Origin: a virus
Lineage: Duplodnaviria; Heunggongvirae; Uroviricota; Caudoviricetes
Length of the DNA: 4,736 bases
Direction: 5' to 3' (one strand)
Virus record (IMG/VR): IMGVR_UViG_2671180846_000003
Coordinates: 1 to 4,736 of that record
The position numbers were made by a program, and so were the translations under genes. Of this stretch, positions 3,884 through 4,688 are shown in pieces (the stretch's first letter is position 1; every line of letters starts with the position of its first letter). The notes under the pieces were generated by a model. The model made no database searches and was not told the DNA's origin. It was given only the letters and a program-made list of their open reading frames with translations.

Positions 3884-4467
3884 CCATTTCTACAAAAAAG
3901 CCTCTTTATGCTGAGGTTCACAATGTTCCTGATGATTATGAGTTCACTGACGAGGAACTAAACAGAATTATTGCAGGTGATATGTTCACTCCTCGTCAGG
4001 CCGCAATAATGGCACGGGAGATACAGAAACTCCGCGCCGCCATGCTTCATGGTGCCGAACCTGTAAGCCAAACTTACAAGTCACAACATACGCAGTTTGA
4101 ACAAGTTGCTGACCTCTACGAAATGCAATTTGATGACGGTCGCACTTGTGCCTTTCACACTGATGCGCAAAAGGCTGCGCAATGGCTTCAGGCATGCGAC
4201 GGAAACAGGGTTCAGGAATACGTGAAGCTGGAGCGATTGCGTAATGCGCTATCGGGCAACTCTCCGGTAACTCCGGATGGTTGGATATGCTGTAGTGAGC
4301 GAATGCCGGATAAGTTAATTCCGGTAATGGTCATGTATGAAGACGGTGAGATGTGGTCTGCAATGTGGAATGGCAATCGCTGGGATGATGGCACCGAATA
4401 TCCGGATCCGCACTCAGTTACGCACTGGCGTGAAATGCCAGCAGCACCGCAGCAGGAGGTGAAGTGA
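3880..4467 (+). CDS. DUF551-domain phage protein (unknown N-terminal domain plus C-terminal DUF551-like domain), 195 aa
   Basis: ATG at 3880 with SD GGAGGA at 3865-3870. The C-terminal about 60 aa (PDGWICCSERMPDKLIPVMVMYEDGEMWSAMWNGNRWDDGTEYPDPHSVTHWREMPAAP) fits the W/P-rich DUF551 pattern I recall, ending in a THW-x-MP motif. DUF551 genes are common in lambdoid prophages near xis/int. Confidence 0.72.
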   Translation: MTISTKKPLYAEVHNVPDDYEFTDEELNRIIAGDMFTPRQAAIMAREIQKLRAAMLHGAEPVSQTYKSQHTQFEQVADLYEMQFDDGRTCAFHTDAQKAAQWLQACDGNRVQEYVKLERLRNALSGNSPVTPDGWICCSERMPDKLIPVMVMYEDGEMWSAMWNGNRWDDGTEYPDPHSVTHWREMPAAPQQEVK

Positions 4468-4688
4468 TGGACTCCTTCGCGAAATATACGATTATTGACT
4501 GGATAGCATTCCTTCAGGTTTTGCTCATCTGGTTTTATATGGCTTACAGGAGTGGGCAGTGGATTGTCAGTGTAGCCTGTAGCAAGGGATGGCGTTGGTG
4601 GAACCGAAAGAATAAAAAAGCGCTGGCCTTGGATTCGTTTTACGAAGCATTCAATCTTAACAGTCTTCAGCCTGGTGAGGTAGCCTGA
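4467..4688 (+). CDS. Small predicted membrane protein, 73 aa (one hydrophobic helix followed by a basic cluster)
   Basis: ATG at 4467 overlaps the upstream stop (TGATG), with SD GGAGGTG at 4455-4461. Translation MDSFAKYTIIDWIAFLQVLLIWFYMAYRSGQWIVSVACSKGWRWWNRKNKKALALDSFYEAFNLNSLQPGEVA has a roughly 20-aa hydrophobic segment then RWWNRKNKK. TGA at 4686-4688. Confidence 0.55.
   Translation: MDSFAKYTIIDWIAFLQVLLIWFYMAYRSGQWIVSVACSKGWRWWNRKNKKALALDSFYEAFNLNSLQPGEVA

Follow-up and report, generated by a model that had tools for sequence, protein, structure and literature searches.

A 73-codon open reading frame of a P22/lambda-like prophage contig, read as a DUF4752 gene cut short by IS600

The IMG/VR virus record IMGVR_UViG_2671180846_000003 (positions 1–4736, the whole stretch of DNA analysed here, hereafter the window) carries on its plus strand, at positions 4467–4688, an ATG-initiated open reading frame (ORF) of 73 codons, which a first-pass annotation made from the letters alone had described as the gene of a small membrane protein. 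The ORF comprises the front 70 codons of a gene of the DUF4752 family, after which the insertion sequence (IS) IS600 is inserted, supplying the last three codons and the stop; the product consists of residues 1–70 followed by Glu-Val-Ala. Taken as a whole, the feature is very probably an IS600-disrupted DUF4752 allele in a decaying P22/lambda-like prophage of an Escherichia coli O26:H11-type strain. Most likely, then, the ORF represents a damaged version of a gene that is catalogued already, the native 92-amino-acid (aa) product of which is translated by coupling to the preceding gene in the early-left (pL-direction) operon.

The junction is visible in the comparisons with related loci. Megablast searches against phages and 5426 complete E. 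coli genomes indicate that the DUF4752 homology stops at window position 4676, and positions 4676–4736 (plus strand, starting TGAGGTAGCCTGAGTTTAACGG) correspond to the left end of IS600, a member of the IS3 family, inside which the window ends. The position of the junction is ambiguous by one base, since T4676 is common to the native GGT codon and to IS600. RefSeq gives the name ‘IS3-like element IS600 family transposase’ to the transposase of four elements, and the segment 4676–4736 is identical to their left ends; the alignment of the window with the IS600 copies shows base-for-base identity from TGAGGTAGCCTGAG onward, and the terminal inverted repeat starts with TG, as in known left ends. 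A complete IS600 would be expected to encode an orfA/orfB transposase with a programmed frameshift, to be about 1264 bp long, to end in CA and to make a 3-bp target duplication. The element is 1264 bp long where it was measured (strain FWSEC0001), and the RefSeq annotation of the IS600 transposase in closed O26:H11 genomes includes the programmed frameshift. The last 60 bases of the window recur at thousands of sites across E. coli genomes, with as many as 43 in a single genome, and are found on plasmids as well, which is the behaviour of a mobile repeat.

The part of the ORF native to the DUF4752 gene, codons 1–70 (M1 to G70, 4467–4676, plus strand), was delimited by alignment and by matches to PF15944, phrog_667 and E. 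coli genomes; it is 100% identical in alignment to the corresponding part of the 92-aa gene of the O26:H11 strains EH031 and 11368. In strains EH031, 8479, 2010C_3902 and 11368 the uninterrupted gene encodes 92 aa and reads NSLQPG-YVIVVTTQSGMTIQIHKPKEEK at its end (WP_000376716.1), whereas the window copy reads NSLQPG-EVA-stop and has lost the 22 C-terminal residues. The non-native tail (4677–4688, plus strand; codons GAG GTA GCC TGA) comes from the terminal inverted repeat of IS600, as follows from the alignment with intact and IS-interrupted sister loci. Were IS600 absent, the sequence across 4650–4700 would continue into GGTTATGTCATTGTAGTC; the 66 bp of the 3′ end of the gene (TTATGTCATTGTAGTC) would lie beyond IS600 and outside the window. 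The ORF proposed in the first-pass annotation thus exists, but the 73-aa protein is not a native product; it is an IS600-made truncation of the 92-aa DUF4752 protein.

The window is the whole of the draft contig LDYN01000254.1 (GCA_001309465.1), which ends 61 bp into IS600. The same 73-aa product is encoded on 11 contigs, all shorter than 5 kb, from three GenBank assemblies and several Sequence Read Archive (SRA) runs; six of them end 15–114 bp past the gene, and the longest continuation (contig L005, same junction) proceeds 114 bp further into IS600, up to the start of the transposase. As the same junction occurs in several assemblies and SRA runs, it can be considered real, and the contig break is the usual short-read collapse at a repeat. 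The exact junction of the window is absent as a single piece from the 5426 complete E. coli genomes, which contain only neighbouring insertion sites; it is a site not seen in the closed genomes searched, yet one of several nearby. The sequence, the family assignment and, for sister strains, the IS600-split pseudogene state are already in public annotation.

The closest counterparts of the window allele are found in the O26:H11 strains FWSEC0001 and 05_3471 (B9S25_RS07580 / RS30775), in which RefSeq lists an IS600-split DUF4752 gene as a two-part pseudogene in the same prophage, with the same IS in the same orientation. The insertion there lies 10 bp upstream of the site in the window, after AACAGTC, with the target duplication GTC; since the sites differ by 10 bp, these are independent transpositions. 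Altogether, IS600 copies were observed at five positions within about 440 bp of this prophage, in the same orientation, in or just after DUF4752, namely in the window, FWSEC0001/05_3471, 8479, 2010C_3902 and EH031; the copies occupy window positions 4676–4736 and, in the sister loci, L002:4267–5530, L010:2661–3924, L094:2188–3451 and L003:4705–5968. Each of the four sister insertions that could be inspected has its own 3-bp target duplication (GTC, GGA, AAA and ATT), and because these duplications differ, the five insertions are independent events. Such a cluster could point to a hot spot for insertion in this region or to hopping over short distances; IS-excision-enhancer activity is known for IS3-family elements in enterohaemorrhagic E. 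coli (EHEC) (PMC9397093). Independent IS600 insertions clustered around one gene are of minor interest for the biology of IS elements in EHEC O26.

The window protein, a member of DUF4752, matches the Pfam profile PF15944 with 94.5 bits (E = 4e-27), above the gathering threshold of 27 bits, and PHROG family phrog_667 with E = 1.5e-29. The match to PF15944 covers only profile positions 2–66 of 84, consistent with truncation, and that to phrog_667 covers positions 1–72 of 94. The window copy contains the N-terminal hydrophobic helix and the basic stretch of the family and lacks the C-terminal β-hairpin (PG-x5-T-x2-G-x2-I) of the full-length domain; it is a truncated member. The native gene encodes 92–94 aa (RefSeq WP_000376716.1, ‘DUF4752 family protein’). 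In comparison with WP_000376716.1, the window copy shares residues 1–70, the coupling to the upstream gene, the early-left position and the N-terminal helix, and differs in having EVA from IS600 in place of the C-terminal 22 residues.

The intact family is narrow and comprises proteins of temperate phages of Enterobacterales and of about 10% of complete E. coli genomes (549 of 5426). A tblastn search found DUF4752 in 69 phage records of several morphotypes, including the lambdoid siphoviruses HK106, mEp043 and mEp213, the P22-like podoviruses ST104 (orf7), CUS-3, Kapi1 and IME10, and the Shiga toxin (Stx) phages P27, PA28 and 86; distant relatives with 28–33% identity occur in SPN1S, the P1-like phage D6 and temperate phages of Klebsiella and Hafnia. 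The annotation in all records is “hypothetical” or “DUF4752” only. A word-indexed search returned 47 clusters, of which 45 carry a precomputed match to PF15944; all the named clusters belong to E. coli or Enterobacter; an exhaustive profile search of 1.84 billion representatives gave only 46 at E ≤ 1e-3. The conservation in related prophages that the earlier proposal presupposed was accordingly found, for the intact gene. Among 52 distinct alleles from 80 IMG/VR loci, the ratio of non-synonymous to synonymous polymorphism (pN/pS) is 0.04, and third codon positions account for 35 of the 49 variable sites; given these two values, the intact gene truly codes for protein and is subject to strong purifying selection.

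Alleles of DUF4752 with a frameshift are frequent too, some of them around an A6 run at about 4613–4618 (window positions ~4604–4625, CGAAAGAATAAAAAAGCGCTG). The frameshifted proteins P0017, P0023 and P0025 are 73-aa products as well and end in IRFTKHSILTVFSPVLSL. Frameshifts or splits of the gene were noted in phages 86, phi315, phi296, H19J, GER2 and PhiR12_3, and in several Stx phages the gene appears as two tblastn pieces; these may represent real decay, phase variation or homopolymer sequencing errors.

The TGA stop codon of the upstream DUF551 gene (4465–4467) and the ATG of the DUF4752 ORF share one base, and a strong Shine–Dalgarno sequence, AGGAGG, is located at 4454–4459, with a spacing of 7 nt to the ATG; a start at the GTG that lies one codon earlier would give 74 aa. 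In related viral loci the stop/start overlap (TGATG or TAATG) and an AGGAG[GA] Shine–Dalgarno sequence in front of DUF4752 are present in 80 cases out of 80, which bears out the coupling to DUF551 proposed earlier. The upstream gene (3880–4467, plus strand) encodes a 195-aa EaA-like DUF551 protein (PF04448, E = 3e-17; WP_000156090.1 in sister strains, RefSeq). A consensus scan of the plus strand between 3800 and 4466 revealed no sigma-70-like promoter, weak promoters being able to escape such a scan; the sole sigma-70-like site it gave lies inside IS600. An antisense 170-aa ORF on the minus strand (4212–4724), spanning the whole of DUF4752 together with the 3′ part of DUF551 on one side and the IS600 end on the other, was rejected as spurious, as it crosses the IS junction and as most of the polymorphism falls, as stated above, on third positions of the plus-strand frame.

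Hydropathy, AlphaFold modelling and distant family members all point to a transmembrane helix, or signal anchor, at codons 8–27 (TIIDWIAFLQVLLIWFYMAY; 4488–4547, plus strand). The mean Kyte–Doolittle (KD) hydropathy of residues 8–26 (TIIDWIAFLQVLLIWFYMA) is 1.78, the top 19-residue value among the proteins of the window, where the second highest is 1.34, and the octanol transfer energy on the Wimley–White scale is about −12 to −13 kcal/mol. Among 34 family representatives, 19 reach a KD value of at least 1.6 and most others 1.3–1.6. The net charge of the N-tail of the window protein is 0 and that of residues 28–52 is +7; in the family, the N-tail carries −2 to +1 in 33 of the 34 representatives and the 25 residues after the helix carry +3 to +8 in all 34, the exception to the N-tail pattern being P0049, in which the N-terminus is replaced and the hydrophobic helix is missing. 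The positive-inside rule predicts membrane orientation from charge, and because of this charge asymmetry an N-out/C-in topology is predicted. The first-pass annotation had called for transmembrane and topology prediction, and the one hydrophobic helix that it described is thus strongly predicted as a single-pass helix, retained down to 16–30% identity. A cleavable signal peptide was rejected by inspection, as the hydrophobic stretch of about 20 residues is not followed by a small-residue (−3/−1) cleavage motif.

The Trp/Arg/Lys cluster, GWRWWNRKNKK (codons 41–51, 4587–4619, plus strand), is predicted to lie on the cytoplasmic side. It was described earlier as juxtamembrane; the cluster is there, but it is not directly juxtamembrane, as a second short hydrophobic stretch (residues 32–38) separates it from the helix. 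G41–R47 are invariant in the close subfamily; distant members keep the basic character, W42 being the sole Trp of the cluster that they keep. Alignments down to 16–30% identity share one plan. A short N-tail leads into the hydrophobic helix, which is followed by a polar turn (K/R-x-G-x-W) and another short hydrophobic stretch; next come a strongly basic segment, a helix of the pattern A-x3-FY-x-AF, Pro-Gly and, at the C-terminal end, two strands with alternating hydrophobic residues. The PG...T..G..I hairpin pattern is kept at the same level of identity. AlphaFold2 modelling, run twice (with 10 and 34 sequences), predicted a helix at residues 9–45/48, with a mean predicted local distance difference test (pLDDT) score of 80–90 over the residue blocks 11–30, a helix at 50–61 and strands at 72–76 and 82–86. 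Trp residues occur every 10 positions (W12, W22, W32 and W42, then W44 and W45), and an alignment of 7 sequences that extends to 26–29% identity shows no change at W22, W32 or W42; this spacing may be related to interfacial anchoring or to helix–helix packing.

These predictions suggest that the intact protein would be a bitopic inner-membrane protein with a 7-residue periplasmic N-tail and one transmembrane helix (approximately residues 8–27) leading into an interfacial hydrophobic, Trp-rich segment and a basic cytoplasmic stretch, oriented N-out/C-in according to the positive-inside rule; a small cytoplasmic module would then follow, in which helix 50–61 packs on the hairpin formed by the two strands. 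The family may have an accessory, non-essential role, its protein being produced from the pL transcript at an early stage of lytic growth or induction; such expression is suggested because the upstream region contains no promoter-like site and the translational coupling is conserved. At the cytoplasmic face of the membrane, the C-terminal module would possibly bind a partner from the host or the phage, and the protein would itself be neither a pore nor a toxin. The window copy, without the hairpin half of the module, has most likely lost its function entirely or for the greater part, because the lost hairpin is conserved across the family, and a null allele would fit the other pseudogenes in the prophage.

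Small single-pass phage membrane proteins of the N-out/C-in orientation are exemplified by the Pf3 coat protein. The Pf3 coat protein, T4 Imm and SPO1 Gp56 resemble DUF4752 in small size, short N-tail, one helix and basic C-terminal side, but this likeness does not go beyond architecture; neither in sequence nor in fold was any similarity to them detected, and DUF4752 adds the conserved cytoplasmic helix-plus-hairpin module.

Neither in its truncated nor in its intact form did the protein match a PADLOC model at E ≤ 0.1, i.e., no similarity to known exclusion or defence families (SieB, Imm, Cor and the like) was found; Pfam and NCBIfam contained no matching family other than DUF4752, and among them no toxin family and neither Kil nor DicB. 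A profile search of PDB sequences yielded matches at chance level (E ≥ 0.06), and a Foldseek search against PDB found nothing at E ≤ 0.001 (best E 2.6); against BFVD, the Foldseek results were limited to a fragment of the family and a single weak match (22% identity, E = 0.015), which may be a further DUF4752 family member. An Rfam search of both strands of the whole window gave no family at E ≤ 1, including antisense and toxin–antitoxin RNAs. A relation to the small membrane toxins of type I toxin–antitoxin systems (Hok/Ldr/TisB-like) is thus not borne out; the DUF4752 gene is co-translated within a long operon. The literature search found no paper naming DUF4752, PF15944, phrog_667, WP_000376716 or YP_009601885 and nothing relevant on DUF551, prophage and membrane or on small membrane proteins of the early-left operon, and the DUF4752 peptide motifs are not present in two phage accessory-gene screening papers or their supplements. 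The suggested link to superinfection exclusion, division inhibition or toxin-like action therefore received no support from these searches, and Kil is encoded separately in this prophage; such roles may nevertheless be possible for the intact family.

It is possible, if rather unlikely, that intact DUF4752 is an undescribed membrane-anchored early effector, e.g., an inhibitor of a membrane-associated host defence, an exclusion factor or a host-takeover factor, acting via the helix–hairpin module, the loss of which is tolerated or favoured in EHEC prophages. That the gene has been inactivated repeatedly in EHEC prophages, by IS600 and by frameshifts, could mean that it is costly for the host, and in that case the window copy would be a natural loss-of-function allele.

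It is improbable that the 73-aa product is itself functional, as a superinfection-exclusion factor, division inhibitor or toxin-like effector for which the anchor and the basic cluster suffice. The product does keep the transmembrane helix, the Trp/Arg/Lys cluster and helix 50–61, the same truncated allele occurs in at least 11 draft contigs and so persists in a clone, and the other 73-aa frameshifted alleles also circulate; however, a neutral lesion is expected to persist in a clone anyway. The deleted β-hairpin is conserved family-wide and the full-length gene is under strong purifying selection, and the EVA-stop tail is an accident of the IS sequence. The protein has no similarity to exclusion, defence or toxin families, no Rfam antisense or toxin–antitoxin RNA was detected, the consensus scan gave no promoter-like site for expression in the lysogen, and the prophage carries several other pseudogenes.

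Somewhat less probable again is that the N-terminal helix forms the core of a soluble oligomer (a helical bundle) and that DUF4752 is cytoplasmic. The subfamily-invariant Asp11 and the conserved Gln17 in the helix, the recurrence of Trp at 12, 22, 32 and 42, and the AlphaFold helix (9–45/48), which is uninterrupted over about 37–40 residues and longer than a bilayer span, could be read in this way, but 19 consecutive residues with the hydropathy and octanol energy given above, the KD values of 1.3 and above in most of the 34 members, and the consistent charge asymmetry (N-tail in 33, following 25 residues in all 34) are the signature of a membrane anchor. That the IS junction arose in assembly, by the joining of a repeat read to the contig end in a strain with intact DUF4752, can be practically set aside, since, although the window is a short-read draft contig ending 61 bp into a multicopy repeat and none of the complete genomes in the collection contains the exact junction, the identical junction and 73-aa product recur in independent assemblies and runs, one contig runs 114 bp into IS600, and closed genomes with the same prophage contain, within about 440 bp, four further genuine insertions of IS600, each flanked by a 3-bp target duplication.

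Several points weigh against the reading of the feature as an inactive, IS600-disrupted allele of a membrane-anchored family. Neither the right-hand junction of the IS nor what is left of the 3′ end of the gene falls within the window, and, judged from the window alone, a larger rearrangement may have occurred instead of a simple insertion. The truncated protein, with its anchor, basic cluster and helix 50–61, could keep or gain activity. The confidence of AlphaFold is low for the C-terminal module (pLDDT 55–69; predicted template modelling (pTM) score 0.32–0.33). The transmembrane helix holds D11, invariant in the close subfamily, and Q17, nearly invariant there, and membrane insertion is for this reason likely rather than proven. 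The literature search gave no publication on the family, and the functional part of the reading is purely inferred.

The case calls for caution, since an ORF at the end of a draft contig, with a stop codon supplied by an IS, would have been taken for the gene of a “73-aa protein”, although intact phages make no such protein. At the same time, DUF4752 is a legitimate uncharacterised target, being a conserved, constrained, predicted membrane-anchored early protein of lambdoid, P22-like and Stx phages, and the form suited to its study is the one of 92–94 aa (HK106, mEp213, O26 strain 11368), not the allele of the window.

The genes in the 4736 bp of the window all point the same way and are of the kind usual in the early-left accessory region of P22/lambda-like prophages. 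Their order is a Kil fragment, Erf, a protein resembling single-strand DNA-binding proteins (SSB-like), Abc2 (anti-RecBCD), a DUF2737 remnant, a 195-aa protein, an Ead/Ea22-like protein, a 62-aa protein, a 205-aa protein, DUF551 (EaA-like) and the DUF4752 ORF. The Lambda_Kil fragment (window positions 1–86) belongs to a gene cut by the left contig end and is separate from the DUF4752 ORF. In uninterrupted relatives, DUF4752 is followed by two small ORFs and then by torI/xis (excisionase-like) and int, and the placement of the ORF at the distal end of the early operon, as proposed in the first-pass annotation, does not hold. The prophage is defective and decaying: the DUF2737-family remnant (1659–1823) has an in-frame stop at 1743–1745 and is a pseudogene in collinear closed genomes, and in the collinear sister loci the Ead/Ea22-like gene is partial and the downstream integrase gene contains an internal stop.

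The left boundary of the mobile DUF4752 module (4442–4466, plus strand) consists of the last 8 codons of the upstream gene (ending PQQEVK) with the AGGAGG at 4454–4459. Most phage matches in the megablast search begin at query position 143, corresponding to window position 4442, and otherwise different phages are homologous from there. The upstream genes differ (DUF551, Ea22-like, dATP/dGTP pyrophosphohydrolase and others), yet all of them end in QEVK in the 80 loci, which places a module recombination boundary about 25 nt upstream of the ATG; the linker 4442–4466 is probably a recombination joint in lambdoid mosaicism. Further upstream, the 127-aa protein encoded at 948–1331, between erf and abc2, has no Pfam match and corresponds to PHROG 44 (single-strand DNA-binding protein, E = 3e-27); from its sequence it looks like a divergent short SSB-like protein.

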